Source of the DNA: a virus
Taxonomy: Duplodnaviria; Caudoviricetes
Direction: 5' to 3' (one strand)
Length of the DNA stretch: 64,000 nucleotides
IMG/VR virus record: IMGVR_UViG_3300032295_001098
Span: 1-64,000 of that record
In this document: piece after piece, positions 10,941 through 28,341 of the stretch
Layout of the letters: each line of letters opens with the position of its first letter
Position numbering within the stretch: the stretch's first letter is position 1
The notes under the pieces: generated by a model
Told to the model about the DNA's origin: nothing
What the model saw: the letters and a program-made list of their open reading frames with translations, nothing else
The model's database searches: none
Program-made: the position numbers and the translations under genes

Positions 10941-11705
10941 ATGGATTTATCTGACCTGACTATACCTGCACCGCTTCCTGGTCCTGCTGATTGGAATGAT
11001 GACGGCTTTGTCATTAAAAAGGGACTGTTGCCAGAAGACTTAATGCAACAGTATGAACAATGCTGGATTGAACACAACTTAGAGCGACCTGGTGGTTGGC
11101 CTGACTGTACTCCGTACCGTCGTCACCCAGAAGTATTAAATATTCTTACCCATCACATGATTAATGACACGATGGAACAATTGATTGGCGAACCTGCCGC
11201 TGTTCACTTAAACCTAACTGGTTGGGTTACTACTCGCCGTAACTGGCATCAAGACACTTATCTCAATCCATCACACGTTGGTGACTACTACGTTGCAATT
11301 TGGATTGCACTGGAAGACATCCATCCAGATTCTGGTCCATTTCAATTTGTTCGTGGATCACACAGGTGGCCTACGGTTACAAGAGAAAAGATACTTAACG
11401 CATTAGACCCATCTGAGCGTGACCATACATGGCCTAAGCACAGTGAGCGCTTGCTCACTCCGTTGTTTGAAGCCGAGATTGAAAAGCGTAATGCGGAAGT
11501 AATCACATATCTTCCAAAACGTGGAGATGTTTTGTTCTGGCATGGTCGTTTGCTACACCGTGGTTCTGAACCAAACGTTCCTGGAATGCAACGCAAATCA
11601 TTAATTGCACATTACTCAGGAGTTAATCACCGAGAAGATATGCCTACTGCTGTACCCCATGGTAGTGGTTGGTACTTTCCAATTGATGGAGGAAATGTTC
11701 AATGA
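10941..11705 (+). CDS. phytanoyl-CoA dioxygenase-family 2OG-Fe(II) oxygenase
   Basis: WHQD, IWIALEDIHPDSGPFQFVRGSH, GDVLFWHGRLLHRG motifs. Confidence 0.85.
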   Translation: MDLSDLTIPAPLPGPADWNDDGFVIKKGLLPEDLMQQYEQCWIEHNLERPGGWPDCTPYRRHPEVLNILTHHMINDTMEQLIGEPAAVHLNLTGWVTTRRNWHQDTYLNPSHVGDYYVAIWIALEDIHPDSGPFQFVRGSHRWPTVTREKILNALDPSERDHTWPKHSERLLTPLFEAEIEKRNAEVITYLPKRGDVLFWHGRLLHRGSEPNVPGMQRKSLIAHYSGVNHREDMPTAVPHGSGWYFPIDGGNVQ

Positions 11706-12283
11706 AACTTTTAAATGTTGGTTGTGGAACACACTACGCACAGGGTTGGGTAAACGCAGATACATGGGAAACAGATGACACTAAACCAGATGTCAAAGTA
11801 ACTCCTGGTGAACCATACCCTTTTGAAGACAATACGTTTGATGCCATCTATATGGGACATGTATTGGAGCACATTCCTTGGTTAGAAGTATCTACATTCC
11901 TTAAAGATATGCAACGCATTGCTAAACCTAATGCACCGATGCTTATTGTTGGACCAGACGTCCATAAAACTATTAAGCGATGGAAAGACGGACAAGAGCC
12001 GTGGTGGCTAGTTGAGTCAGTTATGGAGCATTTAGATGTTCCCGACACACATGTCCCTGGTTTGGAATGGTGGGATGGTGCACACCACCATTGGAACTGT
12101 CACGAGACAAGAGTTGAGAAGTTATTGACTTCGTTGGAGTTCAATAACATTGTTAATCAGTTTGATGTAATACCTAATGATCCAAACGGTAAATCATGGT
12201 TTGACGCAGACAATCAGATTGAATGGCCTGTGGTTGGTAAATACTTCTGGCAATTAGCCTTCAGTTGTAAAAACCCTAGTTAA
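11702..12283 (+). CDS. class I SAM-dependent methyltransferase
   Basis: LNVGCG motif I; YPFEDNTFDAIYMGHVLEHI. Confidence 0.8.
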   Translation: MKLLNVGCGTHYAQGWVNADTWETDDTKPDVKVTPGEPYPFEDNTFDAIYMGHVLEHIPWLEVSTFLKDMQRIAKPNAPMLIVGPDVHKTIKRWKDGQEPWWLVESVMEHLDVPDTHVPGLEWWDGAHHHWNCHETRVEKLLTSLEFNNIVNQFDVIPNDPNGKSWFDADNQIEWPVVGKYFWQLAFSCKNPS

Positions 12284-12885: not shown

Positions 12886-13167
12886 CTATTCTTGGTCGTC
12901 AGGGATCCCGTTACCGTCTTTGTCTTCACCGTTACGTCCTGTGGAGATCATTAGACCTGCCAACGTACCTGTGATAAAAGTTGCTACGGAAGAAAGAACA
13001 CCGAAGAACATCTTGTCGTTTTCGGCTTGAGCACCAATTGGCTGTGTTACGAATACGAGTGCCCAGAGAACACCAATAGTTGTAATCATGAGAACGAAAC
13101 CAAGCATGCATCCGATAACAAACTTAAGGCGAGCATCTAGTTCTGCTGGTGTCATACGCTTTTTCAT
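12886..13167 (-). CDS. two-TM membrane protein
   Basis: two hydrophobic helices; DKDGNGIPD tail. Confidence 0.6.
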   Translation of the reverse strand: MKKRMTPAELDARLKFVIGCMLGFVLMITTIGVLWALVFVTQPIGAQAENDKMFFGVLSSVATFITGTLAGLMISTGRNGEDKDGNGIPDDQE

Positions 13168-13388
13168 GGGGCAACTGTCTCCTCTGTAGGAACGGTGTCA
13201 ATAAATAAAGATCCTGAAAGCGGATCAAAGCCGAGCAATACGTCGGGGCATGCTCCATCTACTTCACATGCTGGTCTTTGGCACTGTGGCGCTTCCCAGT
13301 TTTCTGGGTCTTGGCACTCATAACGGTAATTACCGTCATAGCCACAACTTGCAAGCAAAACAACAGAAATAAAAAGTAGTTTCTTCAC
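13164..13388 (-). CDS. lipoprotein
   Basis: signal peptide with LASC lipobox; four further Cys. Confidence 0.6.
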   Translation of the reverse strand: MKKLLFISVVLLASCGYDGNYRYECQDPENWEAPQCQRPACEVDGACPDVLLGFDPLSGSLFIDTVPTEETVAP

Positions 13389-13405
13389 CTACCAATTATA
13401 GATGA

Positions 13406-13615
13406 TTAGACCTTAGAGCGCCTCTTGAAGTCCGTGTGGGTACCAAGGTATGAGTAAGTCTCATACTGTGGTTCCTCTTTAGGGGATGGTGAACCGTATT
13501 CGTAAGATTCTACAGCACGCATAACAAAACGATGAAATGAACGGACAACGAATAGAACGATGGCGGCAATAAAGAAGGTAGTCATAAGGGGTTTAAGTAT
13601 AACCGATTTGGTCAT
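13406..13615 (-). CDS. small membrane protein
   Basis: GGAGG SD; N-terminal TM. Confidence 0.45.
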   Translation of the reverse strand: MTKSVILKPLMTTFFIAAIVLFVVRSFHRFVMRAVESYEYGSPSPKEEPQYETYSYLGTHTDFKRRSKV

Positions 13616-13618
13616 GAT

Positions 13619-13792
13619 TCATCCTCCATTGGAATAAAAGCCACGACCGACCAGATTGACGGCTGGAGAGAAGTAGACAGGGCGTAACTGCTCACCGCAG
13701 TCTGGACAATTGATTACTTGTTGTTCGTCATAGATACTGCGGGTTTCTTCATGACGGTGGTCATTCCCGCATTTGTAAGCATATGTTGGCAT
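13619..13792 (-). CDS. FmdB-type zinc-ribbon protein (57 aa), not in ORF track
   Basis: MPTYAYKCGNDH...CPDCGEQLRPVYFSPAVNLVGRGFYS. Confidence 0.75.
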   Translation of the reverse strand: MPTYAYKCGNDHRHEETRSIYDEQQVINCPDCGEQLRPVYFSPAVNLVGRGFYSNGG

Positions 13793-13801
13793 GACAAAAG
13801 T

Positions 13802-14170
13802 CTAGTCGTATTGAACGGGGATTTCTGAACGTGGGTTGATGTCATTGGCAACCGCAATGCGGTGGTGCCCATCTTCAATGACAGGACCTTTGTAATCGGC
13901 TCCAGGAAAGTAATCGTACATACGACCACGAACACTGAAAGGATGTTGACCTATTGTGATTGGGTCTTGTACACCTTCACTCTTAATTTCATTGTACAAA
14001 CCTTCAGTTTTTGCTTCTTGTACTTTACGAGAAGTTACTTGAGGAAGATCTTTGTACTTTTGTGGTTTATCAGTTTCTGGCTGATCTAGTGGAATCATGT
14101 CCATCAACTTATGTGCAGGGATGAACATAGCCAATTGGGCTTCGTTCAGGACGTGCTTCTTTTTACCCAT
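13802..14170 (-). CDS. stand-alone ParB/Sulfiredoxin-domain protein
   Basis: LYNEIKSEGVQDPI...IEDGHHRIAVA. Confidence 0.75.
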   Translation of the reverse strand: MGKKKHVLNEAQLAMFIPAHKLMDMIPLDQPETDKPQKYKDLPQVTSRKVQEAKTEGLYNEIKSEGVQDPITIGQHPFSVRGRMYDYFPGADYKGPVIEDGHHRIAVANDINPRSEIPVQYD

Positions 14171-14182
14171 TAGGTAATTAGT

Positions 14183-14413
14183 TTAGTATTCTGATCCTGG
14201 GTTCATGACCATATGTGCAATGTCACGATAATCACAGCAACGTGGGCAACCACAGTCACCTGCTACTGCACCAAGGAACGCCGCCTGACGCATAGGTCGG
14301 GTTGTTGGGTTTGGCTGGTCACTTGCACCGATGCGCTGTCCAGAAATGCTTGGAGCGCCCTCACTTGGAGAACTTGGATCAGGGTTGTTTCGGTTTACTT
14401 TGCGTTTTGCCAT
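14183..14413 (-). CDS. hypothetical protein with Cys cluster
   Basis: TACAAT-N6-ATG; CGCPRCC. Confidence 0.5.
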   Translation of the reverse strand: MAKRKVNRNNPDPSSPSEGAPSISGQRIGASDQPNPTTRPMRQAAFLGAVAGDCGCPRCCDYRDIAHMVMNPGSEY

Positions 14414-14558
14414 GTACCGATTGTACAACTAAACAAAATTACCCGCTCACCCCAAAAGTATCACTGATGTATACGAGTTGTCAAGACCTTTTAGCGAAAA
14501 AATACACATGTATATTTCGTACACATGTCAGATGGCAGTTAAACTAAGTGTGTAAAGG

Positions 14559-14885
14559 CTAGTAAGCCTCTGGATTAGTGCCCCAATCCACAATCTTTCC
14601 TGGTTTAAAACCTTTTTTAGAAATATGGGTGGTTACACCGTAAGGATGGCGTGTTTTTTCTTCAGGATCAACGGGTGTGACCTCATAAACAGGTGCAAAC
14701 ATCTGCCCAGTACGCTTTGCCGCTAGTCCACCAAAGTATTTAGCATCAATTTGTGACTCTGTAGCAAAGGCATGCACACCACTTGGGCTGAGTGTCTCCA
14801 TTTTTGGCTCAATAATGTCCCCTTCACCAAAAAAATGTGCTGAACCGTGGAACAACTTAGGACTTAAATGCTCATGTGCCGCCAT
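14559..14885 (-). CDS. Arr-like ADP-ribosyltransferase-fold protein
   Basis: LFHGS...GDIIEP...HAFAT...VYEVTP resembles the Arr ART pattern (FHGT..GDL..P, YFT, YxVEP). Confidence 0.6.
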   Translation of the reverse strand: MAAHEHLSPKLFHGSAHFFGEGDIIEPKMETLSPSGVHAFATESQIDAKYFGGLAAKRTGQMFAPVYEVTPVDPEEKTRHPYGVTTHISKKGFKPGKIVDWGTNPEAY

Positions 14886-15217
14886 TATTCGTAGTTCCTT
14901 ACAGGGACTTCCATATTGGGGTTGGTGTCATAGGCGGCGGCAATACGGTGATGTCCATTTAAGATGACACTGACTCCACGTTCGTCATATTCTGCGATAC
15001 TGACTGGGCTAACCACACCATGTCTAGCCACACTCTTATTTAATGATTCTCGTCCCAGGGATGCTTCGGTGTTCTCTTGGCGTTTCTGACGTAGTAAACC
15101 GTGGGATTCGGAGTAGGTTGAGGCTAAGCGGTCATCTTCGTTAACATCGGTGGGTACGAACGACATGAGTTCATGTGCGGGAATGAACATGCGAAATTGG
15201 TGGTGAGATAACGACAT
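14885..15217 (-). CDS. stand-alone ParB/Sulfiredoxin-domain protein
   Basis: LNKSVARHGVVSPV...ILNGHHRIAAA. Confidence 0.7.
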   Translation of the reverse strand: MSLSHHQFRMFIPAHELMSFVPTDVNEDDRLASTYSESHGLLRQKRQENTEASLGRESLNKSVARHGVVSPVSIAEYDERGVSVILNGHHRIAAAYDTNPNMEVPVRNYE

Positions 15218-15723
15218 TACTTCTTCTCTTTCCCTATTTCACCTACATACTTCACACGACCTGTACCAACTTCAGATTTAGGGATCATGTACGAGATGCT
15301 TCCCTCATCTTCTCCTTTATTTCTGTACGGCTGTACACGACCATGTTCTAAAGTTTCCATACCTGTACTTGGGACAGACTCCCACAAACTCTGCTGTGCG
15401 CCTTCCATCCTTTTTTTAAACTTTTGAGTTTCACCTGTATAAGAAGCGTCACCATAAGTTACTGGGGACATCTCACGAGTGTCTACATCATACACATGCA
15501 TGTATTTGCGAATACCCCCACCAATTTCTTTTGCGGATTCATAGGTGCCAGCGTGAATAATATCTGGGTGAGTATTGTTATGTGATTCCTTTGTACTCAT
15601 TGTTTTTTTAAGGTCCCTTAATTCATCAGCATACTTAGGTTCTACCTCGTGCGGCGGAGTCTCTTCACGAGACGCATGGTAGACACGCATGATGTGGTCA
15701 CCGACATGGTCTGACGCCGCCAT
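15217..15723 (-). CDS. putative ADP-ribosyltransferase-fold protein
   Basis: VYHAS, IHAGT, YRNKGEDEGSISY pattern (H/H-G/E). Confidence 0.4.
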   Translation of the reverse strand: MAASDHVGDHIMRVYHASREETPPHEVEPKYADELRDLKKTMSTKESHNNTHPDIIHAGTYESAKEIGGGIRKYMHVYDVDTREMSPVTYGDASYTGETQKFKKRMEGAQQSLWESVPSTGMETLEHGRVQPYRNKGEDEGSISYMIPKSEVGTGRVKYVGEIGKEKK

Positions 15724-16571
15724 TATTTGTCTTCCATGCCTGGCAACTGTGGCTGGCTGAACTGGTTACTCAATGGTTTAGGAGTGTTTTTACCAATACC
15801 ACGGAGTTCCTTGTAATGTTGTTTTGCCGAACGCATGGTTGAATCAGGTATTTGAGTCCATCCTGACTGCTTTTTTACTGATTTAAGGTGACTAGAAGAC
15901 ATAGTCATGTCTTCGTCCTCAAAACTGTAGTTGTTGGTGACGTCTAGGTCTTCATTTTCTCTATGGCGGGACACAGGAAGACCCAGTTTTTCTGCATGTT
16001 GGGTCATTCGGACGCTGTGTTCTGACAAATCTGCATCTGCGGTTAAAGAACCATACTTTTGATGAAAATATGACGCCATCATAGGCACGGTATGGCGCAT
16101 TGTAGAGTGAGAAAACGCTCCTGCTACGTTTGTAGAAGCAGGATCAGGGGTAAACATCTGTGATGTACCCTTGCGAATGGTTCGTATTTCTTTTGCATAC
16201 GAAATACCTGTATAACGGCGGTATTGTTTGGATTCAGGATGGTCAGGATTGTCTCTGTACTCTTTGAGTCTTTCGGCATGGCGTGATGCGTATGTGTGAT
16301 CCCACCCAAGGTTTCCTGCAAGTTCGTGGTAATCGTAACCTGTGTCGTTGTAAACCTTTTGTTCTCCGTGAGTTCTATCGCTGTAATTCCTATTAGCAAT
16401 AGTAGGGTTTTCTAGTTGATTAAAGTTTTCACGTTCTTCTGCGGGCCTGTGGCGCACAGTCATTTTTGCTACTTTATGCTCACCCTTAGCGTTAGGCTTA
16501 TCGTTGACGGCTACAACTTCTTCATAGGTGTCATTCCCATAGCCGCTTTTATCTGAATAGTACTTAGCCAT
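15723..16571 (-). CDS. hypothetical protein, His-rich, with C-terminal LSNQF tag
   Basis: 282 aa coupled ORF. Confidence 0.55.
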   Translation of the reverse strand: MAKYYSDKSGYGNDTYEEVVAVNDKPNAKGEHKVAKMTVRHRPAEERENFNQLENPTIANRNYSDRTHGEQKVYNDTGYDYHELAGNLGWDHTYASRHAERLKEYRDNPDHPESKQYRRYTGISYAKEIRTIRKGTSQMFTPDPASTNVAGAFSHSTMRHTVPMMASYFHQKYGSLTADADLSEHSVRMTQHAEKLGLPVSRHRENEDLDVTNNYSFEDEDMTMSSSHLKSVKKQSGWTQIPDSTMRSAKQHYKELRGIGKNTPKPLSNQFSQPQLPGMEDK

Positions 16572-16906
16572 TATTCGTCCTTTGTAGGGAACTGTTGGTT
16601 GGAGAGGTATTCACGCCTTCTCTTGGTGTTTCTGTATTTTACTTTTGGTAATGTGATGTCACCAGAAGCCAGCCCGTGTAAGTAATCTTCTTGGGCGGAT
16701 TGGATATAATCGCCCCATTCAGCCTGATTAGGGCGAATACGACCCATATTACGGGGACCCATTGAGATATCGCCGTATTCTTCCTGCTCTACATCGTCTG
16801 TATATCTGCCCATAGGCTTACGAGGCTCTGAATCACCTTTTAACGATGTGTAGTTAGTTACACGCTCTTTAGCCCGAGGCGGAAGTGGTTTACGAGGGTC
16901 TTGCAT
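16571..16906 (-). CDS. hypothetical protein with C-terminal LSNQQF tag
   Basis: TATAAT-N6-ATG leaderless start. Confidence 0.55.
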   Translation of the reverse strand: MQDPRKPLPPRAKERVTNYTSLKGDSEPRKPMGRYTDDVEQEEYGDISMGPRNMGRIRPNQAEWGDYIQSAQEDYLHGLASGDITLPKVKYRNTKRRREYLSNQQFPTKDE

Positions 16907-16948
16907 TTACCAATTATAGACGGTTGTCACCGAAAAAATATGCAGATA

Positions 16949-17203
16949 CTACTTCATACTCCTACGGATTTGACCCATCTTGTAGTCAGCAATACCTGAC
17001 TGGATGGTGTTCCAGTTCTTTTTAGCAAATTCAACATGTTTTGAATCTGCATCAGGCCATTCATTCCATGAGTCGCCGTTCTCTGGGGTCACAATAGACC
17101 ATGCATCGTCTCCAGGACCATTCACTGCGTCACGTGGGGCTTTAGCAATACGGAACGCTTTACCGTAGTGCTGGTCCCAATTAATGGATTCATGTGCTGC
17201 CAT
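16949..17203 (-). CDS. hypothetical protein (MAAHESINWDQ)
   Basis: coupled ORF with shared N-terminal tag. Confidence 0.55.
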   Translation of the reverse strand: MAAHESINWDQHYGKAFRIAKAPRDAVNGPGDDAWSIVTPENGDSWNEWPDADSKHVEFAKKNWNTIQSGIADYKMGQIRRSMK

Positions 17204-17361
17204 TACTTAGTCTTCCGTTCCTGTTTCTGCTTATTCTTCTCTAGCAGGTACTCAGGGTCACGCTTAGTAAAGCCAGCGGCCTTGTGGATCTCTTCACGGG
17301 CGACAGGTTCACCGTCTACCCACACATAGTCATTGAATTGCTGTCCGTCTAGGCGAGGCAT
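17203..17361 (-). CDS. hypothetical protein (52 aa, MPRLDGQQF...), not in ORF track
   Basis: TAATG overlaps with both neighbours. Confidence 0.6.
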   Translation of the reverse strand: MPRLDGQQFNDYVWVDGEPVAREEIHKAAGFTKRDPEYLLEKNKQKQERKTK

Positions 17362-17663
17362 TACTTACCCTTATCCACATCTCTGATAGGTATCTTGTCT
17401 ATACCTAGGTCACGGGCAATGACCGCCCTGTGGTGACCATCATAGAGCATGTTGTTTCTGAGGGATACGTTTAACGGTGTCTTTATACCCTCTTTTTTGA
17501 TGGAAGCGTGTAGTTCGTGGTAGTCATAGTCGTCGTCTGGGTGAAAGACGTTATCCGCATCTAAATTACCAACAGTGTAGTTGTTTTCTTCAAAATGGTC
17601 ATAGAAGTCGTTAGCAAACATTCCACGCAACTGTTCCTGGTTGATGTGCTCGTGAGCGGGCAT
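17361..17663 (-). CDS. stand-alone ParB/Sulfiredoxin-domain protein
   Basis: LHASIKKEGIKTPL...LYDGHHRAVIA. Confidence 0.75.
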   Translation of the reverse strand: MPAHEHINQEQLRGMFANDFYDHFEENNYTVGNLDADNVFHPDDDYDYHELHASIKKEGIKTPLNVSLRNNMLYDGHHRAVIARDLGIDKIPIRDVDKGK

Positions 17664-17981
17664 TTATTGACCCATCTTCTTTTTCCAGTTTTCACCTTCA
17701 TCCGATGAGGTCGGACCAATATCAATTGGACCATAGTGTGACTCGGCGGCGTTGAACATGGCTGTGGCTACACCTCTGTTTTGATACCGTTTGTTCGTAG
17801 CAATACCGAACACCACGTGCTCACGCTCTTGTCCAGAATTAAAACCGAGCATCACGCCTAAACGACCAGTCGTGGTCTTGCCACTGCGTGCCTCCACGTC
17901 CCCAAACGGGTTCGTACGGATCGTGTGCTCTTTACCACGCTTGTCTATGAACTGGTGGCTAAGGCTCTCATATGCTGCCAT
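17664..17981 (-). CDS. GNAT acetyltransferase-like protein
   Basis: IATNKRYQNRGVATAM acetyl-CoA motif A. Confidence 0.7.
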   Translation of the reverse strand: MAAYESLSHQFIDKRGKEHTIRTNPFGDVEARSGKTTTGRLGVMLGFNSGQEREHVVFGIATNKRYQNRGVATAMFNAAESHYGPIDIGPTSSDEGENWKKKMGQ

Positions 17982-18355
17982 TAGTGATCCCTCGGATGGG
18001 TTACAGAATATGTTACAGGTATTTCGGTATCTGGGTTGATGTCATGTGCCGCTACGAGTCGGTGTTGACCATCCCATATTTGTGTACCGCCACCACGTTG
18101 GGCTGAGTGGAGCCGCAGGTGTACAGGGATTTTAACCCCTTCTTTTTTAATACTGTCGTAGAGACTGTCTTTGTACCCCCCATAAGGGTGTCCCTCTTTA
18201 GATTCTCGCAATTTCCTAGCACGGACATTAGGAGACTCAGTCATAGGAAGGTAACCTGAACTAGAGGTTTCTTCATCTCCTGCGGGGTATTTCATAATCT
18301 CCCGTGCAGGGAGAAACATGGACAGTTGACCACTGAGGTGCTCTTGTGCTGGCAT
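17981..18355 (-). CDS. stand-alone ParB/Sulfiredoxin-domain protein
   Basis: LYDSIKKEGVKIPV...IWDGQHRLVAA. Confidence 0.75.
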   Translation of the reverse strand: MPAQEHLSGQLSMFLPAREIMKYPAGDEETSSSGYLPMTESPNVRARKLRESKEGHPYGGYKDSLYDSIKKEGVKIPVHLRLHSAQRGGGTQIWDGQHRLVAAHDINPDTEIPVTYSVTHPRDH

Positions 18356-18371
18356 TTATCTAGTATAGATG

Positions 18372-18650
18372 TTAATTAAACCATGAGGAATACGTTTTTT
18401 GAGTATTCCTGCGGTTAGTAAAGCCGCCCCTGATGAGTTGACTTTTACCAAAACCGTCATCTGAAGACATATGCATGTCAACCATGCCTATGGCTTGATC
18501 ACGACCATCCTGCAACAGTTCTACAGGGTGTGTAGGAGTGCCTTCACCTGTCAACATCCCTGCATACCGTGTTGCCCAGTTCCGTGCATACGACTCTCTG
18601 AGCCGTGGATAAGGATGCTTCACCGAAAATTGTTCAGGGTTTAGCGACAT
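18372..18650 (-). CDS. hypothetical protein (MSLNPEQF)
   Basis: coupled ORF with shared tag. Confidence 0.55.
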   Translation of the reverse strand: MSLNPEQFSVKHPYPRLRESYARNWATRYAGMLTGEGTPTHPVELLQDGRDQAIGMVDMHMSSDDGFGKSQLIRGGFTNRRNTQKTYSSWFN

Positions 18651-18832
18651 CAGTCGTTGTCAGCCGCACGAGGGCGCTGTCTCAACCTCTCCTCTAGATC
18701 CCTGTCATAGAGTGATGAAGTGTTAGGTGTGAACCCTGACGCTTTACGCTGTTCTTTTAACTCTGCAAGGAGTGGGTGACCCCGACCAACTTTACGGTTA
18801 AGATTATGTGCTTCGTTTTTGCCTCGTGCCAT
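18650..18832 (-). CDS. small basic hypothetical protein
   Basis: TATACT-N6-ATG leaderless start. Confidence 0.55.
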   Translation of the reverse strand: MARGKNEAHNLNRKVGRGHPLLAELKEQRKASGFTPNTSSLYDRDLEERLRQRPRAADND

Positions 18833-18849
18833 TTATCTAGTATAGATGG

Positions 18850-19155
18850 TTACTTACGTGGGGTAATACGTGGAGGAAGTGGGTCACCCGTAGATTTAGC
18901 CCAAGCGTCGCCTTCTACAGTGCGAATTGGATTATGTTGGGGCGGTGCTACATCGTCAAATTGGGTAGAAATGTGCTGGGCATGACGGTACATTCCTGTA
19001 GCGATACCTTTCCTACGGTGGTTTTCTTCAACAAAGACATTTTCAATCTGTGGGTGCCACGATAAACGACCTACAACTTTGTTATCCTCTTTCGCAATGA
19101 CTTCATGTGGCACATCTTCGTCAGACGGGCCGTACTGAAAGGTGTACTCAGGCAT
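18850..19155 (-). CDS. GNAT acetyltransferase-like protein
   Basis: VFVEENHRRKGIATGMY motif A. Confidence 0.75.
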   Translation of the reverse strand: MPEYTFQYGPSDEDVPHEVIAKEDNKVVGRLSWHPQIENVFVEENHRRKGIATGMYRHAQHISTQFDDVAPPQHNPIRTVEGDAWAKSTGDPLPPRITPRK

Positions 19156-19292
19156 ATTTCAAGTATAGGGCTATTTGGGCGAGTTGGGTGGTCGGTCGGA
19201 TTTTTGGATGGGGCTATTGAGCCGTGGAGCATTGGGTGGGGCCTGTTGTCTACCCCCCGCCTCCGCTTGCCCCCTCACTTAACCATGGGGGG

Positions 19293-19392
19293 TTATCCAC
19301 AGCCCGCTCCATGCCCTGTATGGCTCTGCTGGGTTATCCACAGGTACCCCTGTGTACAGCCTGTGGATACTGTGGAACATCTCTGTGGAACA
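19293..19392. promoter_or_regulatory. DnaA-box cluster
   Basis: perfect TTATCCACA at 19293 and 19334; inverted near-matches at 19351, 19362, 19371, 19384. Confidence 0.7.
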
Positions 19393-19399
19393 TTGGGGG

Positions 19400-19413
19400 C
19401 GAACACCCGTTTG
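19400..19413. promoter_or_regulatory. LexA (SOS)-box-like site
   Basis: CGAAC-ACCC-GTTTG versus Gram-positive CGAAC-N4-GTTCG. Confidence 0.4.
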
Positions 19414-19478
19414 TGTGTCGTTCGTCACAGTGTGACCATCGTCACATGGATTGTTCCAATCGTGTGACATTCGTCACA
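19414..19478. promoter_or_regulatory. three CRP/GlxR-type sites
   Basis: TGTGT-cgttcg-TCACA 19414-19429, TGTGA-ccatcg-TCACA 19431-19446, TGTGA-cattcg-TCACA 19463-19478. Confidence 0.7.
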
Positions 19479-19959
19479 AACCCTTGACAACTCGCAATTG
19501 GCACGAGACGCACCACAATGCGTTCTCAGAGGAGGAGGGAGGGATGTAAGGGGTCAAGGCGGGCAGTGGTACAAAGTACCCTCAGAGAGGCTGTTGTGCG
19601 TCTACGAATGGGGCTATGAGCCTTGCTGGGTAAGGGTTTGCGGGGTATGGGTAGGTTACGAAGTACTCGCCACAGCGCCCCAATTGCTATCCACTGCACC
19701 ATCGCTCCATATCGGCACCTGCACGCACCACAGAGCCTCCTAGGCACCTCTCCTGCCATCCTGCGGTATTCATTGATTAATTGAATTCTCTGCCGATTCG
19801 CACCTGCATCTCCTCCATGCCTCCCTCTATCTCCTCCTCCATCCGATGGATGGCTGGTCGTTGGGGGCGCCCAATTCCAGCCCTGTCCCCGCCGTCCCGA
19901 GGCTCCAGCCCATACGGGGCATGGCTCAGAAGAATTCAGAAGAATTGTTTAATTGGGGG

Positions 19960-19989
19960 TTGACAGATGTACTCAATCCATGATTGAAT
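19960..19989 (+). promoter_or_regulatory. candidate early promoter
   Basis: TTGACA at 19960, 18 nt, TG-a-TTGAAT (imperfect -10). Confidence 0.35.
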
Positions 19990-20113
19990 TGGGGTGGAGG
20001 GGGATGCGTCCCCCGCCTCGGTTCCTTGACAAGTGGCAGGTACGGCACGCAGGCTTCGCCCTGCGCATTTTGCGTTCCTGCCCTCAGAATCAAACATGGT
20101 TCAAAATTCCTCA

Positions 20114-20204
20114 GCGTCACGGGCTGGCTTCGGCTGGCTCGTGGCGCTCAATGAGGGCTGGAGGCATTCCCCCTGCTTCAGCCCTGATTGAGCGCACAGC
20201 GCTC
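20114..20204 (+). ncRNA. triple overlapping-hairpin element B, copy 1
   Basis: GCGTCACGGGCTGGC-TTCG-GCTGGCTCGTGGCGC; long H2; GAGCGC-ACA-GCGCTC. Confidence 0.65.
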
Positions 20205-20244
20205 CATTGGCACACTGCCAATGCAGTCTTGAGGGAGACACACC

Positions 20245-20763
20245 ATGAAAGCAACACGACAGCAACTACTCAATCTCGGAGCCAGCATCCTGAGCACTGC
20301 CTACGAAGGCGGATCTTGCGGAATGGCTTCTTGGGCAGTTTCCAACGGCACCTACAAGTGGGGCACGGAGAAGGGCGAAGGCGAATTGCACGGCAACGAG
20401 CACTACGCATCAGTCACCGTGTACGACACCGAAGCGTGCGAGTTGGTGGAAGACGAAGCCGAGTTGGCAAAGTTGACCGATGACGATGGCTTTGGTGGTT
20501 GGGGCGGGTTCTACCGCTTCGGCAAGCCACTCGTGATCAATGAGTCCATCATTGCTGACTTCATTGAGAAGATCGGCACGGGTGAGTTCAATCAGGACAG
20601 CGTTCCTGACTACGGTCAATTGTCAATCAAGCGAGTGAGTGCCCTAGCAGGGTGCTACCTCTTCGGTGAGGACGCCATTGACGAATTTGAGTCCGACAAT
20701 GACTGCATCGTGTCTGACACCATCGTGCAGTTCATCCTGCTCGGTGAGGTCACATACGGCTGA
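20245..20763 (+). CDS. hypothetical early protein
   Basis: GAGGGAG SD; ends DTIVQFILLGEVTYG. Confidence 0.7.
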   Translation: MKATRQQLLNLGASILSTAYEGGSCGMASWAVSNGTYKWGTEKGEGELHGNEHYASVTVYDTEACELVEDEAELAKLTDDDGFGGWGGFYRFGKPLVINESIIADFIEKIGTGEFNQDSVPDYGQLSIKRVSALAGCYLFGEDAIDEFESDNDCIVSDTIVQFILLGEVTYG

Positions 20764-20766
20764 TCA

Positions 20767-20828
20767 TTCCCCCAGCGCCTAGGGCGTGCCCGTTCAATCG
20801 GGACTGGGGACTACTGGCACACGCCAGT
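20767..20828 (+). ncRNA. T-loop element A, copy 1
   Basis: CCCCAG[CGCC-TAG-GGCG]TG[CCCG-TTCAAT-CGGG]A-CTGGGG-ACT + ACTGGC/GCCAGT hairpin. Confidence 0.7.
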
Positions 20829-20851
20829 TACAACTGCCTAGAGGAGGCACC

Positions 20852-21109
20852 ATGGATACCACTACAGATGCAGTGCAGAACTACATCGCCACGAGACGGC
20901 GTGCACAGGAGGACATCATCGTGGGGCTGGTCAAACGGCTCAACGATGGATTCTCAGACATGGACGGCGCCGTGAGCAATCTAGGGCTGTTTCATCAGGC
21001 ACATCACATCTTCAAGTCACAGACCAACTGGATCGGTCAACTGGGCGAAGCATTCGCCAAGTACGAGTCACTGGCTTACCTTGAGGATGACTTCACGCCG
21101 AGTGAGTGA
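20852..21109 (+). CDS. hypothetical early protein
   Basis: CCTAGAGGAGG SD before ATG 20852. Confidence 0.65.
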   Translation: MDTTTDAVQNYIATRRRAQEDIIVGLVKRLNDGFSDMDGAVSNLGLFHQAHHIFKSQTNWIGQLGEAFAKYESLAYLEDDFTPSE

Positions 21110-21113
21110 GTGT

Positions 21114-21175
21114 TTCCCCCAGCGACTAGGTCGTGGCTCTTCAATGAGCACTGGGGACTGTGAGCAACCGCTCAC
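21114..21175 (+). ncRNA. T-loop element A, copy 2
   Basis: CCCCAG[CGAC-TAG-GTCG]TG[GCTC-TTCAAT-GAGC]A-CTGGGG-ACT + GTGAGC/GCTCAC hairpin. Confidence 0.7.
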
Positions 21176-21203
21176 TACAAATACCTTGAGGGAGGTATTC
21201 ACC

Positions 21204-21755
21204 ATGAAAACATCAGACATCAAGCAGATTCTTGCCAAGGATCCAAATGCAGTGTTTCTTGTCAGTCAACGGCACCGCACTTACTACGCCACAATCGTTG
21301 AAGTGGTGGAGCGTGAGGTGCCTGTGTATGACAACTACAGGCAGACGGGTACACGCACTTCGGTGTACTTCAATGTGCTCGGCTCGGTTTACAAGCACGG
21401 CATACAAGCCGACAAGTACCGAGAAGAGCGTGTGCCTTCGTACACCTTGGAGAAGAGTCACTGGATCAAGCCACGAGACATTCAGAGTCAGTTTGACTTC
21501 GGCACTGGTGAGACACTTCAACAGTGGATCGCCAATGAAGACCGTCAAATGAAGACTGACTGGCAAGCCAGCAAAGATGAAGAAACTGCGAAGTCGGATC
21601 AAGTGAAGGCAATCGTTCGCAAGATCAGTAGCCCGAAGGTCACCGACAGAGAATGGGACGAACTGAGTGATGAACTCAGCCGACTCAGTCTTCAGACACT
21701 GAAAACACTCAATGAGAAGATCAACCCGCAGATCGGTTTCGTACGATCAGCGTGA
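21204..21755 (+). CDS. hypothetical early protein
   Basis: GAGGGAGG SD before ATG 21204. Confidence 0.65.
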   Translation: MKTSDIKQILAKDPNAVFLVSQRHRTYYATIVEVVEREVPVYDNYRQTGTRTSVYFNVLGSVYKHGIQADKYREERVPSYTLEKSHWIKPRDIQSQFDFGTGETLQQWIANEDRQMKTDWQASKDEETAKSDQVKAIVRKISSPKVTDREWDELSDELSRLSLQTLKTLNEKINPQIGFVRSA

Positions 21756-21765
21756 GGTGAGCGAC

Positions 21766-21829
21766 TCCCCCGTGCACTTTAGGTGTGGCGTTCAATCGCA
21801 ACACGGGACTAGCGACATGCGAATGTCGT
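21766..21829 (+). ncRNA. T-loop element A, copy 3
   Basis: CCCGTG[CAC-TTTAG-GTG]TG[GCG-TTCAAT-CGC]AA-CACGGG-ACT + GCGACAT-GCGA-ATGTCGT. Confidence 0.7.
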
Positions 21830-21858
21830 GAATACAAATACCTAGAGGAGGTATAGCC

Positions 21859-22545
21859 ATGAATACAGAAGCAATCTACGACAAGGTGCAGGCAATCCTT
21901 GATCGTGCCAATCATCCGAACACGCCACAAGCGGAAGCCGAGACGGCTCTCGCCATGGCACAACGGCTCATGATGAAGCACGGTCTTGAAGAGTCCGCAT
22001 TCGCCAAGGCTCAAGATCGTGACGAGAACATCGTTACCGATCAGATCCCAATCAGTGGTCAATGGCAACTTCGCCGTCTCGGTCTTGCTGGTGCAATCGC
22101 TAGTGCCAACTCTGTTGCCAACTACCGCTCCAAATCGTGGGCGGATGGCAAGAAGTCGTTGGTGTTGGTGGTGTACGGCACTGCTGGTGACATCTTCGCT
22201 GTCAAGACACTGTTCGCATCGGCAGACTTGCTCGCTTCTCGTGTGATCCCAAAGGGTGATCGGTCATTCCGCAATGCGTGGTGGCTCGGATTCTCCTCGG
22301 GAGTGCGTGAGGTGTTGCGCAAGTCCAAGAACGAAGTGATCGCAGAGCAAGGTGTGGGCACTGGGTTAGTGCTCGCTGACAAGTTCAAGCGTGCAGACGC
22401 TGAGATGCGTTCAAAAGTCAAACTCAAGTCCAGTGGGTACTACAGGTACTCATCGGGTAACGGTTACAACGCTGGTCGTTCTGCTGGTCGTTCGTTCAAC
22501 ACTGGTGGCATCGGTAACGGTGTCGCTGGAGCGCTCGGACGATGA
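21859..22545 (+). CDS. DUF2786-domain protein
   Basis: KVQAILDRANHPNTPQAEAETALAMAQRLMMKHGL. Confidence 0.8.
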   Translation: MNTEAIYDKVQAILDRANHPNTPQAEAETALAMAQRLMMKHGLEESAFAKAQDRDENIVTDQIPISGQWQLRRLGLAGAIASANSVANYRSKSWADGKKSLVLVVYGTAGDIFAVKTLFASADLLASRVIPKGDRSFRNAWWLGFSSGVREVLRKSKNEVIAEQGVGTGLVLADKFKRADAEMRSKVKLKSSGYYRYSSGNGYNAGRSAGRSFNTGGIGNGVAGALGR

Positions 22546-23018
22546 GCATCCATGCATACATGGAGGTAGTGCGGGAGGGCGTTGCAAAGCGCTCTCCCAA
22601 AATGCCCGAACATCAAGCCACGGTGTATGCGATTGAGAATGTGGTGGAGCGTCACTTGCCATCGCAAGTGATCGCTACCAAGAACGCATTCGCTTGGCTG
22701 GATCGTGTGTGTGAGACCGAAGGCTGGGACACGCCGATGGTTGATCGCATCCGATCCACCAAGTGGGCAGGTGTCGCTAGTGCCGAAGGCAATGTCATCG
22801 GCATCAGTGGCTCCAGCACGACAGCACTGGTACTGGCTCACGAACTCGCTCACATCGTGTGTGGCGAGCGTGGTCACAATGAGTGTTGGCGTAATGCGTT
22901 CGTGAACATCGTCCGAGATCACATCTCGGTACAGCATGCGTCACTCCTGCATACCTTGTACGAGCGTTTCCAACTTCAATCAGGTCAGTGGAGACTGACC
23001 GACACATCACGAGTGTGA
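22542..23018 (+). CDS. SprT-like HEXXH metallopeptidase/metallohydrolase
   Basis: VLAHELAHIV...GHNECW; coupled to the DUF2786 gene. Confidence 0.7.
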   Translation: MSIHAYMEVVREGVAKRSPKMPEHQATVYAIENVVERHLPSQVIATKNAFAWLDRVCETEGWDTPMVDRIRSTKWAGVASAEGNVIGISGSSTTALVLAHELAHIVCGERGHNECWRNAFVNIVRDHISVQHASLLHTLYERFQLQSGQWRLTDTSRV

Positions 23019-23083
23019 ACTCGTGGTGCTGTCATGGCTCATCAGCGCAAGTTGGTGAGTCATGACAGCATCATCCGATGCTG
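23004..23083 (+). ncRNA. element B, copy 2
   Basis: CATCACGAGT-GTGA-ACTCGTGGTG; 24-bp H2 with GCAA loop; CAGCATC-ATCC-GATGCTG. Confidence 0.65.
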
Positions 23084-23109
23084 AACCAAATGCCTAGAGG
23101 AGGCAAACC

Positions 23110-23433
23110 ATGAGTTATCAACTGACAGACTGGGATCTAGAACAGATCACTGACACACTGGACATGTACGAGGCGGGTTCCGTAATGGAGTACTCGGGTC
23201 GTGCAATGTACGGCGCTCAATGCCTTGGCATTGTGACACCTGATGTGGCATCAGCATTCATGATCCTCGGATCGGCACTCGCTGATTTGGGCAATGACGG
23301 TAATGCATTGACGAGGAAACTTCTTCGTGAAGTGCGCACCGACAGCATGGGTCGTGACGAGACAGTTGTCTACTTCCCATCCATCACAATGCCAGCAGGC
23401 TATGTGGAGGAGGACGAAGACAGCGACAACTAG
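23110..23433 (+). CDS. hypothetical early protein
   Basis: YSGRAMYGAQCLGIV...DSMGRDETVVYFP; strong SD. Confidence 0.7.
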   Translation: MSYQLTDWDLEQITDTLDMYEAGSVMEYSGRAMYGAQCLGIVTPDVASAFMILGSALADLGNDGNALTRKLLREVRTDSMGRDETVVYFPSITMPAGYVEEDEDSDN

Positions 23434-23447
23434 TCGTAAGTGATAGT

Positions 23448-23530
23448 CGGGAGCATCACGGCGTAAGCCGTGGTGCCCTCACAGTGCATCGGCGTTGTGT
23501 CGGTGCATTGTGAGGGCATACAATTGCCCG
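23448..23530 (+). ncRNA. element B, copy 3
   Basis: GCATCACGGC-GTAA-GCCGTGGTGC; long H2; GGGCA-TACAAT-TGCCC. Confidence 0.7.
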
Positions 23531-23556
23531 TTCAATTAACGCCTAGAGGAGGCACC

Positions 23557-23814
23557 ATGGATGCAAGTATTCACAAAGTAACTGGGCTACGGATTGAGCG
23601 ATCCGATGACTCACGACTCAACACAATTGATCTCGTGATTCAGTACGAGGACTTAGCCTTCAGCCGTCCCCAGTGGGTTGACTACGACAAGGAGTCATTC
23701 GGTTACGCAAAATTGGAGACCACGATCACTCTCTTCATCAGTGATGAGGTGAACATGGACACAGTGTTGTGGCAAGCAATTGCAGATGTCACTTCACAAC
23801 TCTCCAAAGTGTGA
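23557..23814 (+). CDS. hypothetical early protein
   Basis: CCTAGAGGAGG SD before ATG 23557. Confidence 0.65.
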   Translation: MDASIHKVTGLRIERSDDSRLNTIDLVIQYEDLAFSRPQWVDYDKESFGYAKLETTITLFISDEVNMDTVLWQAIADVTSQLSKV

Positions 23815-23825
23815 GTAATGAGCAA

Positions 23826-23904
23826 TGGGCAGTCATGGCGTGAGCCATGGCGTGCTCGGAGTGCACTGATCCCCCATCGGTGCATTCCGAGGACGCAAGT
23901 CCAT
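23826..23904 (+). ncRNA. element B, copy 4
   Basis: GTCATGGC-GTGA-GCCATGGC; long H2; GGAC-GCAA-GTCC. Confidence 0.7.
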
Positions 23905-23943
23905 AGTTAGAAAAACAAAACAGAATCAGAGGAGGTTCTTACC

Positions 23944-24669
23944 ATGGGTGCAATAACACCAAAACAGCAAGCGTTCATTCGCACAATGCTTCTTGAGCGT
24001 GCTTCAACACTCGGTCTTGATGAGGCTGGCGTTGATCAGTACATCATTGATCAGAAGGTGAATGAGTTGTCAAATAAGTCAGCGTCCACCGTCATTGATG
24101 CAATCAAGAAGATTGAGATCAAGCGTGTGGGCACCGATCACTTGCCGAAGGCAGAGCGCAACATCGTCAACAAGTATGCGAACCCGTGCACATTGTGCGG
24201 GCATCCTGTGCCTGTCGGTGCTGGTCATGCGTTACTGATCAACAGCAAGTGGCAGACATACCACGCTCTCGGACAGTGCTCAACAGAGCCTGCCGTACAG
24301 CCTGAGCGTGTGAGCAATGAATTGTTCGGGACATTGCCTGATGGCTTCTATGCAATGAGGTCAACGGGCACGAACGATCTCGTGTTCTATGCGGTGAAGA
24401 CAAATAAGGGTTTTCATAACCCTCAGTTCAAGGGTCACCGCTCCATCTACTTAGTTGTGGGTGGTCACGATGACGAGCGACTCACTGGTGAGCGTGGCGT
24501 GAACGCTGTGAAGCGTCTCGTAACACTCACTGATGAACAGCGTGTGCAGGCACGAGCACTGTACGGTCAAGAGATCGGACGGTGTGGTGTGTGCGGACGG
24601 CACTTAACTGACGAAGTCACACGCAAGCGTGGCATCGGCAATGACTGCGCAAGCAGGTTGGGCATCTAG
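23944..24669 (+). CDS. DUF6011-type zinc-finger protein
   Basis: C-terminal CGVCGRHLTDEVTRKRGIGNDCA; second CxxC..H..C motif. Confidence 0.7.
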   Translation: MGAITPKQQAFIRTMLLERASTLGLDEAGVDQYIIDQKVNELSNKSASTVIDAIKKIEIKRVGTDHLPKAERNIVNKYANPCTLCGHPVPVGAGHALLINSKWQTYHALGQCSTEPAVQPERVSNELFGTLPDGFYAMRSTGTNDLVFYAVKTNKGFHNPQFKGHRSIYLVVGGHDDERLTGERGVNAVKRLVTLTDEQRVQARALYGQEIGRCGVCGRHLTDEVTRKRGIGNDCASRLGI

Positions 24670-24674
24670 CCCGA

Positions 24675-24748
24675 GGGCGTCATGGCGTGAGCCATGGCGT
24701 GCTCACAGCACATGGGTACGCTCATGTGTTGTGAGGACGCAAGTCCAT
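24675..24748 (+). ncRNA. element B, copy 5
   Basis: H1 and H3 identical to copy 4; H2 differs in sequence but still pairs. Confidence 0.7.
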
Positions 24749-24773
24749 AACACTTACCTGAGGAGGTAAATAT

Positions 24774-26312: not shown

Positions 26313-26391
26313 TCGTGGGCGCTCGGCGCCTCATGGTCGGCGCCCGTAGCGACAGACGATGTGTTCTTGTCCTCACGGGAACCATCACAGT

Positions 26392-26472
26392 GCATCACGG
26401 GCGCAAGCCCGTGGTGTTCTGACAGTACATCGGCACACCGCTGGTGTACCGTCAGAACATCACCCGATGTTC
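26392..26472 (+). ncRNA. element B, copy 6
   Basis: GCATCACGGGC-GCAA-GCCCGTGGTGT; long H2; GAACATC-ACCC-GATGTTC. Confidence 0.7.
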
Positions 26473-26495
26473 AAACAACGCCTAGAGGAGGCACC

Positions 26496-26711
26496 ATGTA
26501 CAACTTAAATGTAAATCTCAGCGGAGGCATTGATCGCCGTGGATCCGAACTGGACATCCTGTACCAGTTAGTTGAAGAGGGCATGGAAGCCATCTACAAC
26601 CGACTTGGTGACGATGGCATTTATCCATGGGGAACTGTGGAGCAATATGTCGCTGTACAGCAGAAGATTCAAAATGCTCTCGGAGAGATCTGTTCTAAGA
26701 ACGGTTTCTAG
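26496..26711 (+). CDS. hypothetical early protein
   Basis: CCTAGAGGAGG SD before ATG 26496. Confidence 0.6.
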   Translation: MYNLNVNLSGGIDRRGSELDILYQLVEEGMEAIYNRLGDDGIYPWGTVEQYVAVQQKIQNALGEICSKNGF

Positions 26712-26715
26712 AGAG

Positions 26716-26776
26716 TTCCCCTAGCGCTTTAGGCGTGGCGTTCAATCGCAACTAGGGACTGTGAACACCCGTTCAC
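26716..26776 (+). ncRNA. T-loop element A, copy 4
   Basis: CCCTAG[CGC-TTTAG-GCG]TG[GCG-TTCAAT-CGC]AA-CTAGGG-ACT + GTGAAC/GTTCAC hairpin. Confidence 0.7.
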
Positions 26777-26805
26777 TATAAGTAAACAAAGCCTGAGGAG
26801 GCACA

Positions 26806-27604: not shown

Positions 27605-27605
27605 T

Positions 27606-27687: not shown

Positions 27688-27723
27688 ATAAATTAATTAA
27701 TCCCTATGACCTGAGGAGGTCTT

Positions 27724-28289: not shown

Positions 28290-28341
28290 TAAGAAGCAAC
28301 CCTGTAACACCTATCAACAACAATGATCTGAGGAGGTCATC

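Follow-up and report, generated by a model that had tools for sequence, protein, structure and literature searches.

Why would proteins of different fold, encoded side by side in one virus, carry nearly the same short peptide at one end? The question is raised by a cassette of small genes at positions 13802-18650 of the IMG/VR virus record IMGVR_UViG_3300032295_001098 (94,977 bp, CheckV completeness 99%; G000 below), the first 64 kb of which form the stretch analyzed here (the window). The peptide, hereafter the tag, is 10-12 residues long, with about eight constrained positions. Its function is most likely that of an address label, i.e., a terminal docking or address tag, and we give a probability of about 0.4 to its being, by analogy with known phages, a loading signal that would bring co-delivered effectors into the virion.

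The shared peptide at the cassette

The first-pass annotation of the locus, made without database searches, had listed twelve such peptides, ten N-terminal and two C-terminal, and each one lies where it had placed it, on the minus strand. The motif is enriched over shuffled open reading frames (ORFs), as the annotation had expected: it is terminal in 8 of the 12 cassette ORFs, a number unmatched in 5000 within-protein shuffles, of which the maximum was 1. As many as 6/12 cassette ORFs, versus 1/139 of the other greedily called ORFs of G000 (one-sided Fisher p = 4.2e-7), match the strict pattern [LI][SN]x(1-2)Q[FL] within their first 18 residues, the single match outside the cassette being a tail-fibre-like protein. 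Scanning the whole 94,977-bp genome in six frames gave 39 matches to the strict pattern, nine of which are in frame within cassette genes. Chance is thus excluded as the source of the shared peptide. Tagged and untagged paralogues of the same acetyltransferase family (GNAT) coexist in G000.

The tag in related loci

An alignment (A1) of the four ParB-like paralogues of the cassette led to 48 related loci from viral contigs. In six frames of G000 and these loci, the relaxed pattern [LIVM][SN]x(1-2)Q[FLW] has 546 matches: 222 in an N-terminal class (start codon at most 12 residues upstream and none farther upstream, with at least 35 residues downstream), 51 ambiguous, 48 in a C-terminal class and 225 others, mostly in wrong frames. 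At least one N-terminal tag occurs in 40 of the 48 loci, at least two in 39 and at least four in 30. The positional preference was assessed on 1020 unique greedy ORFs of G000 and the 48 loci with 200 shuffles. The motif was observed 150 times in the first 15 positions (shuffles 4.8 +/- 2.2, maximum 11) and 26 times in the last 15 (4.3 +/- 2.0, maximum 12); part of the 55 internal matches (20.7 +/- 4.9, maximum 38) are mis-called starts or C-terminal tails.

The 222 N-terminal matches correspond to 174 distinct proteins. When clustered on the portion behind the tag (BLAST, E < 1e-4, single linkage), these fall into 62 clusters (35, 23, 10, 10, 9, 8, 7, 5, 4 and 4 members, seven of 2, and 45 singletons). 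Removal by eye of 20 clusters (27 proteins), which were wrong-strand ORFs or had no tag-like prefix, leaves 42 clusters with 147 proteins. Tagged proteins have a median length of 112 amino acids (aa), with quartiles of 88-133 (171 complete proteins).

Two forms of the tag are recurrent, a long one, M-[AS]-A-x-[DE]-[NH]-L-[SN]-x-x-Q-[FLW], with the hydrophobic residue at position 7 (57/161 tags), and a short one, M-S-N-L-[SN]-x-x-Q-F, with this residue at position 4 (28/161). The remainder of the motif emerges unasked when only the prefix is used as anchor (M[SAP]A.[DEN][HNS], 98 distinct N-termini): 82 of them have L and 12 have I at position 7, at position 8 there are 56 with S, 23 with N, 11 with G and 5 with H, and a Gln is found at position 10 or 11 in 81. 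The residue behind this Gln is F in 46, L in 18, W in 10, H and M in 3 each and R in 1, and never V, I or Y; the one that follows is basic in many of the 98 (R 17, H 15, K 8) and seldom acidic (D 5). A subset of tags continues as Q-[FW]-x-Q-P-[EQ]-L. Some C-terminal tags are likewise extended by Q-P-[EQ]-L-P-G-M-E, and the extended form L-S-x-Q-F-x-Q-P-Q-L-P-G-M-E ends a family of 240-340 aa, represented in G000 by the 282-aa protein of Table 1. In ten loci (among them L009:4885-5007, L010:4298-4426 and L020:5208-5330) the tag is carried by a peptide of about 41 aa with the ending Y-V-N-V-A-M-Q-M-x-P-P-S-x-A-S-N-T-A-S-S-T-K-A; at this size these peptides are too small to be enzymes.

At the conserved positions synonymous codons are freely used (Leu TTA 29, CTA 27, CTT 24, CTC 22, TTG 12, CTG 8; Ser TCN 68, AGY 36; Gln CAA 83, CAG 78; Phe TTT 72, TTC 38), with a codon choice close to that elsewhere in the same genes. 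Selection therefore acts on the peptide, and a DNA-level repeat or recombination linker was rejected on this ground. An N-glycosylation sequon (N-L-S) was also rejected, as there are H-L-S and S-L-S forms without the Asn.

Distribution of the tag

G000 is a myovirus, with sheath, tube and baseplate genes. Its closest isolates are the BRock-type Streptomyces phages, with identities to BRock of 59-60% for the capsid protein, 54% for the portal and 29% for the scaffold; because of this relationship and the presence of two WhiB genes, it is taken to be an actinophage beyond doubt of kind. Between 24 and 34% of the sampled words of the region are found in lake-water metagenomes of at least 13 further studies. 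Among GenBank phages, neither the ParB-like, Arr-like and 282-aa proteins nor the DNA had a match.

A strict DNA pattern for the long tag was run on prokaryote genomes (one per species, 596 Gb) and on viral contigs. The prokaryote genomes yielded nine lone matches, where roughly 17 are expected by chance, with no N-terminal ORF, no tagged neighbour and, judged by title, no actinobacterium among them. The viral contigs yielded 27, of which 24 are genuine tagged ORFs, and for 23 of these 24 two or more tagged ORFs lie within 3 kb. When 5.8 billion proteins were searched with a profile, 233 relatives of the ParB-like proteins were retrieved, all from metagenomes or uncultured phages. The strict pattern is present in the first 22 residues of 66 of the best 120 of these 233, and the remainder of the best 120 are, by eye, mostly near variants (L-Q-x-x-Q-L, L-G-R-Q-W) or late-called starts. 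Overall, the related viral contigs from lakes that bear the tag number at least 60.

Each tag-bearing contig that is long enough to judge has the sheath, capsid or polymerase genes of this myovirus. Six further genomes or large fragments, G001-G004, G006 and G007, have structural or replication genes in common with G000, and G005, G008 and G016 (sheath) and G009 (polymerase) are also related to it. There are no tags in the loci of G011 and G012, which are complete ParB-containing phages without a sheath of the G000 type. In BRock, a looser pattern gives 10 matches of the N-terminal class, all without the prefix, scattered, and none in a cassette. The tag is thus confined to viruses and to one BRock-like actinobacterial myovirus lineage from lakes. 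The GC content of tag-bearing viral contigs spans 0.39-0.65 and includes contigs at 0.64-0.65; as the tag is kept across hosts of very different GC, a partner on the phage side is suggested.

Folds of the tagged proteins

The proposal that one plug-in tag sits on unrelated folds is borne out by an AlphaFold2 (AF2) fold match for the Arr-like protein, by Pfam for the GNAT and by PHROG and PDB profiles for the ParB/Srx-like proteins. In the Arr-like family (A2), in which H-G-[ST] is the catalytic feature examined, 5 of 11 members match Pfam Arr-ms (PF12120; best E 2.2e-7), and the family profile matches the Arr structure PDB 2hw2 (E 0.006). By itself the cassette member (14559-14885) gives no PF12120 match. 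Fold comparison of its AF2 model (mean pLDDT 82.9) places Arr-2 and Arr at the top (E 2e-4, TM 0.68). With the sequence profile and the modeled fold of Arr, this protein is a predicted ADP-ribosyltransferase (ART).

ParB-like PHROG families match cassette proteins down to E 7.5e-8, and the ParB-like family (A6) has an invariant G-x-H-R (a GxxR-type box, here D-G-H-H-R). The Pfam match of this family is below the cut-off; the weak PDB profile matches, nine out of nine, are ParB, Srx, KorB or SbnI. From these sequence features, four genes (13802-14170, 14885-15217, 17361-17663, 17981-18355) are assigned to the ParB/Srx superfamily, with the core of the ParB N-domain; the first-pass annotation had counted five. 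For the GNAT family PF00583 (GNAT), the untagged paralogue scores above the cut-off (E 4.3e-6), the tagged one just under it (E 1e-3), and a relative reaches 7e-8. Both cassette-region proteins are assigned by sequence to GNAT through the acetyl-CoA-binding motif region, in a family (A3) of about half the usual size that retains approximately the C-terminal half of a GNAT only. The majority of the remaining tagged families have no Pfam or PHROG match.

Outside G000, two tagged HExxH proteins of 467 and 546 aa (H-E-M-G-H and H-E-L-G-H) are encoded on the minus strand of G001 (70541-73588; L061:10541-13588), with L-P-G-M-E or Q-P-E-L-P-G-L within or at the end of the protein, and homologues are present in G004, L023, L025 and L037. 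Apart from the motif, the HExxH proteins are backed by weak ESM-atlas leads (LPD23, zinc metalloproteases) with scores of 0.82-0.87.

In both AF2 models the tag is the sole long stretch with a pLDDT below 50, and the fold begins at about residue 11. Such values apply to residues 1-6 of the Arr-like protein, the first strand of which comprises residues 11-14, and to residues 1-7 of the ParB-like protein 17981-18355, in which residues 11-20 have a mean pLDDT of 91. As modeled, the tag is a flexible, disordered terminal extension.

Organization and promoters of the cassette

Every gene from 19155 down to 13802 lies on the minus strand (Table 1). Stop and start share a base at eight cassette junctions and one further gene pair abuts, so that the set is made together. 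No Shine-Dalgarno sequence is found at the cassette genes, whereas it is present at the structural genes and in a plus-strand block farther on in the window; translation of the cassette genes starts either at an overlap of the form TAATG or ATGA or immediately at a promoter-like site. At five starts in or next to the cassette, CTATAMT lies exactly 6 nt before the start codon. TerL has the sole other such start in G000 (CTATGAT at 86608, minus strand), which makes six genome-wide. Given this fixed distance of CTAT[AG][AC]T to the start codon, the mRNAs at these six starts are apparently leaderless. The gene just before TerL also has a CTATAMT-type site in G001 and G004, and no start of this type occurs in the replication module of G000. 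A promoter comparison with G002 and G003 gave nothing clear, a generic sigma-70 and terminator scan of the window was not above shuffles, and no Rfam families or tRNAs were found in the window. No RNA run was listed with reads from 13000-19500.

Table 1. Genes and sites of the cassette region and other features of G000 mentioned in the text
Feature	Position	Strand	Remarks
Dioxygenase and methyltransferase genes	10941-12283	+	PhyH-type dioxygenase (PF05721, 9e-19)
CTATAAT-N6-GTG, same promoter type	13395-13401	-	before lipoprotein-like gene just downstream of cassette
Zinc-ribbon protein, 57 aa	13619-13792	-	C-x-x-x-H .. C-P-x-C-G; adjoins cassette
ParB/Srx-like, 122 aa	13802-14170	-	tag behind basic prefix, MGKKKHV-LNEAQL, then MFIPAHKLM
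Untagged ORF, 81 aa	14183-14428	-	kept in related locus L006
Arr-like, predicted minimal ADP-ribosyltransferase, 108 aa	14559-14885	-	variant tag MAAHEHLSPKLF, K-L replacing x-Q
ParB/Srx-like, 110 aa	14885-15217	-	short tag MSLSHHQF
Unknown family, 168 aa	15217-15723	-	MAASDHVGDHI, tag prefix only (MAASDH)
Unknown family, 282 aa	15723-16571	-	extended C-terminal tag PLSNQFSQPQLPGMEDK (core PLSNQF)
111-aa protein	16571-16906	-	tag near C-terminus YLSNQQFPTKDE (core YLSNQQF); leaderless promoter-like site just upstream
CTATAAT-N6-ATG, leaderless promoter-like site	16913-16919	-	
84-aa protein	16949-17203	-	variant tag MAAHESINWDQH (MAAHESINWDQ at N-terminus)
52-aa protein	17203-17361	-	weak tag MPRLDGQQF
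ParB/Srx-like, 100 aa	17361-17663	-	tag MPAHEHINQEQL
Half-size GNAT, 105 aa	17664-17981	-	tag MAAYESLSHQF
ParB/Srx-like, 124 aa	17981-18355	-	tag MPAQEHLSGQL
CTATACT-N6-ATG, leaderless promoter-like site	18362-18368	-	
Unknown family, 92 aa	18372-18650	-	short tag MSLNPEQF
Untagged ORF, 60 aa	18650-18832	-	preceded by leaderless promoter-like site
CTATACT-N6-ATG, leaderless promoter-like site	18839-18845	-	
Untagged GNAT paralogue	18850-19155	-	aligns with tagged GNATs starting right after their tag
CTATACT-N6-ATG, leaderless promoter-like site	19162-19168	-	
Gap of about 1.1 kb	19156-20244		GC-rich (0.51-0.54)
Plus-strand block	20245-31434	+	higher GC; SNF2-type helicase and WhiB gene
DpdA/queuine tRNA-ribosyltransferase-like gene	34663-36099	-	phrog_887, 1.3e-33
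Sheath	68885-70462		outside the window
Major capsid protein	75586-76662		outside the window
Scaffold	76701-77498		outside the window
Portal	77547-79235		outside the window
HslV/proteasome-like Ntn peptidase	80349-80981		L002:2349-2981; outside the window; starts M-T-T; phrog_1040 1.5e-25, PF00227 3e-8
Large terminase (TerL)	85036-86595		outside the window

Homologues of the 168-aa protein, which has the prefix of the tag only, carry HL[GS]xQF closer to the C-terminus in L004, L015, L088 and L103.

Genomic context

The gap next to the cassette separates the divergent minus-strand and plus-strand genes. No convincing ORF, tRNA or Rfam family was found in it, and it may be a regulatory or origin region. 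Nearly all genes of the plus-strand block are preceded by CCT(A/G)AGGAGG. On its other side the cassette adjoins the zinc-ribbon gene, as do the cassettes of G001, G002 and G003 (37-86% identity). The dioxygenase and methyltransferase just downstream of the cassette are the sole plus-strand genes within the long minus-strand block.

Because of the DpdA/TGT-like gene, a counterpart of which exists in BRock, the DNA of G000 is probably modified and probably carries a 7-deazaguanine; no preQ0 synthesis genes are among the PHROG matches of G000. The gene for the HslV-like peptidase lies between those for portal and TerL. This peptidase is encoded in G000-G004, and adjoins the tag cassette in G002, G003 and L009.

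Four tail-fibre-like paralogues (964-1434 and 1480-2178 in the window; 91646-91999 and 92157-93644 in G000) have the N-terminus M-[AP]-I-D-F-P-N-S-P in common, and an ORF of about 55 aa that ends in EEWNP lies upstream of two of the four.

A possible role of the tag

If the tag is a loading signal, the flexible peptide would bind one common phage-encoded receptor during virion assembly, so that a variable set of small effectors, produced in a constant ratio because their genes are coupled in translation, would be loaded into the particle and delivered together with the DNA. Functionally, the tag would then replace the covalent linkage of the so-called polyvalent proteins. We place this possibility first because of the match with the internal-protein hotspot of T4, in which diverse internal proteins have, according to the accounts of that locus, the leader alone in common (PMC3012670; PMC12373910); the parallel with T4 that had been drawn at the outset is therefore apt. 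The payload repertoire of ART, GNAT, ParB/Srx and HExxH proteins is, moreover, that described for head-packaged and injected polyvalent proteins, solo forms of which are found near late genes (PMC5512222; Iyer et al., 2017). Further reasons are that the tag goes with the phage lineage over a wide range of GC, that the tagged proteins are small, and that their promoter type is otherwise limited to the start of the packaging operon (G000, G001, G004). Finally, the phage probably modifies its DNA. In T4, it is against a background of modified DNA that inhibitors of type IV restriction have to be co-injected (PMC12373910), and anti-restriction proteins made beforehand are of use there.

Several observations weigh against a loading signal. 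PHROG and Pfam scans of the head module revealed no prohead protease family, only the HslV-like peptidase, and no cleavage site was found, no residue being conserved after the tag, unlike in T4. BRock has no tags despite its homologous capsid, portal and scaffold, so that a core structural protein acting as receptor would need a lineage-specific site, and among the genes that BRock lacks, none stands out as common to every tag-bearing genome. A large divergent gap marks the start of the cassette, which has four host-like -10 elements in 2.3 kb, for which reason an immediate-early operon is equally fitting. In the Arr-like and ParB-like models the hydrophobic residue at the end of the tag abuts or enters the first strand, and the tag may therefore not be free to dock. 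Complex prediction of the tagged GNAT (A3) with capsid (A4) and scaffold (A5) gave a score of 0.00, which is no evidence either way.

Candidate partners of the tag were examined among the phage genes as well. The HslV-like peptidase was discarded as an obligatory partner since it is missing from the complete genome of G006, and the HExxH proteins because of their patchy distribution. Mimicry of the scaffold was rejected, as the P-M-V-E-Q-F near the N-terminus of the G000 scaffold is not conserved in its homologues. A screen for genes present in all tag-bearing genomes and absent from BRock returned only the replication-module ORFs 48583-49305 and 49755-50189, which have positional counterparts in BRock and were not retained. 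A common partner of the tag is what we infer.

The partner could also belong to the host, with the tag as a docking motif that tethers early effectors to an actinobacterial hub (e.g., sliding clamp, RNA polymerase or ribosome) and so would gather ARTs, acetyltransferases and ParB-like nucleases near their targets. A disordered peptide at an N- or C-terminus is typical of linear motifs, the cassette resembles an early operon in its leaderless starts and in its position at a divergent promoter region with -10 elements of host type, and no phage gene strictly co-occurs with the tags. In addition, the tag of ParB-like proteins (P0034, P0040, P0049, P0052 and the family in general) runs into Q-L-[SDA]-[ML]-[FYW], in some exactly Q-L-S-L-F, which we take to resemble the beta-clamp-binding consensus QL[SD]LF. 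Most families, however, have only L-[SN]-x-x-Q-F and not this clamp motif, and the ParB model puts the M-F of this stretch inside the first strand (pLDDT 91). The tag is restricted to a single phage lineage, yet the GC range of these phages presumably reflects very different hosts, and BRock, likewise an actinophage, does without it. As no host protein in the 596 Gb begins with the long tag, the tag is not a mimic of a host N-terminus, and overall we consider host docking unlikely. Somewhat more doubtful still is a processing or degron signal, in which a protease cut either removes an inhibitory propeptide or exposes the F, L or W behind the Gln as an N-degron for timed destruction of toxic effectors. 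ClpS, the bacterial N-degron adaptor, reads F, L and W N-termini, which dominate at this position to the exclusion of V, I and Y; the residue behind is often basic and rarely acidic, and peptidases recur beside the cassettes (HslV-like Ntn, tagged HExxH proteins). Against this, neither peptidase is universal, the HslV-like one being absent from G006 (and BRock) and HExxH homologues from G000, G002, G003 and G006, and the gene for the Prp protease (PF04327) was present in 0/6 phage genomes searched. Moreover, the shortest Arr-like forms would lose part of their first strand through a cut after the Phe, and C-terminal tags are incompatible with an N-degron.

Alternatively, the tag could be a handle for a common phage-encoded chaperone or antidote, or for an assembly that joins the mini-enzymes in a cytoplasmic particle, where half-size domains are completed or held inactive. 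Truncated domains (GNATs of about 100 aa, ParB N-domain only) and coupled stoichiometry would fit such a handle, and the 240-340-aa family with its extended C-terminal tag could be the hub, but no candidate binder co-occurs with the tags and we judge this improbable. We give hardly any credence to a peptide without function, be it an mRNA-level feature by which translation starts without a leader or re-initiates, a linker for recombination or a leftover of shared ancestry. The cassette genes do lack Shine-Dalgarno sequences and have overlapping or promoter-adjacent starts, but the use of all synonymous codons, including both serine families, largely refutes this idea, and the motif also occurs at C-termini, is kept from GC 0.39 to 0.65 and sits on proteins that differ in fold. 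A two-stage signal would combine loading and degradation: the intact tag loads more than 40 mini-enzyme families, and a later cut behind the Gln exposes an F/L/W N-degron by which the effectors self-destruct. The ParB-N-only paralogues, four per genome, would in that case be decoys that poison GmrSD-type (ParB-N-containing) type IV restriction of 7-deazaguanine DNA, as T4 Ip1-3 do in another manner. This composite scenario is quite improbable, if less so than a peptide devoid of function.

Relation to known systems

Among known systems, the T4 capsid-targeting leader is the one that the tag would most resemble in its working. As described for the leader of T4 Ip1-3 and Alt, the tag is a short leader, mostly N-terminal, on unrelated small accessory proteins in a variable hotspot, with several payloads per genome (PMC3012670; PMC12373910; PMC5512222). 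In contrast to T4, it belongs to a different lineage (an actinobacterial myovirus with a separate scaffold), for which no sequence likeness is claimed, and it is also found at C-termini. The T4 leader ends at a prohead-protease site and the protease is encoded by the phage; here neither a gp21-type protease nor a cleavage site was found. For this reason we do not file the tag as a member of the T4 capsid-targeting sequences. With polyvalent proteins the tagged proteins share a domain set that is deployed together and, according to the description of these proteins, fast evolution (PMC5512222), HExxH being represented here by the motif and weak leads only. Unlike in polyvalent proteins, the domains are not parts of one giant polypeptide: every one of them has an ORF and a tag to itself, the ORFs being translationally coupled and overlapping from stop to start, and no MuF or portal fusion was seen. 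The tag thus shares the logic of polyvalent proteins, not their architecture.

Other short signals invite comparison. The N-terminal motif that is processed by Prp (in ribosomal protein L27 and in the capsid and scaffold proteins of phage 80alpha) also has Leu-Asn..Gln-Phe and is also found on non-homologous proteins, but this likeness is superficial: the six phage genomes have no Prp gene, the hosts are Actinobacteria and not Firmicutes, and the Phe|Ala junction of the Prp type is not seen, position 13 being R, H, F, Q, K and others, with Ala outside the nine commonest residues. Encapsulin cargo-loading peptides are short, occur at the N- or C-terminus of unrelated enzymes and bind inside a shell with the HK97 fold; they differ in motif and act in cellular compartments, whereas capsid binding is only hypothetical for the tag. 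In PVC-type extracellular contractile injection systems, unrelated toxins whose genes lie next to a contractile-tail operon have an N-terminal loading region in common, and the cargo resides in the tube of a tailocin-like particle. With a length of about 50 residues and poor conservation, these signals contrast with the 10-12 residues of the tag, which is moreover found in a phage.

To our knowledge, besides the T4 internal proteins there are few cases in which many unrelated proteins of a phage are labelled by a single short peptide of defined sequence. No prior description of the tag was found in the full-text literature, supplements and subscription journals being outside the coverage. A paper on freshwater phages reports ADP-ribosyltransferases in such phages, with 0 occurrences of "N-terminal motifs" and "ParB" (PMC6802176). 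What is new is a probable terminal address tag on dozens of phage accessory proteins of about 42 families; the kind of device was already known.

Implications

Depending on the partner, the consequences differ. If the tag is a host-hub motif or a conditional degron, a single vulnerability of the host would be exploited by the whole accessory arsenal of the lineage. If it is a loading signal, the strategy of polyvalent proteins would be attainable by a shared tag rather than by fusion, and a small, transplantable tag would be at hand for putting cargo into actinophage. For the uncultured Actinobacteria that dominate in fresh water, the tagged proteins would then also be a ready set of candidates for injected effectors and anti-defence proteins.

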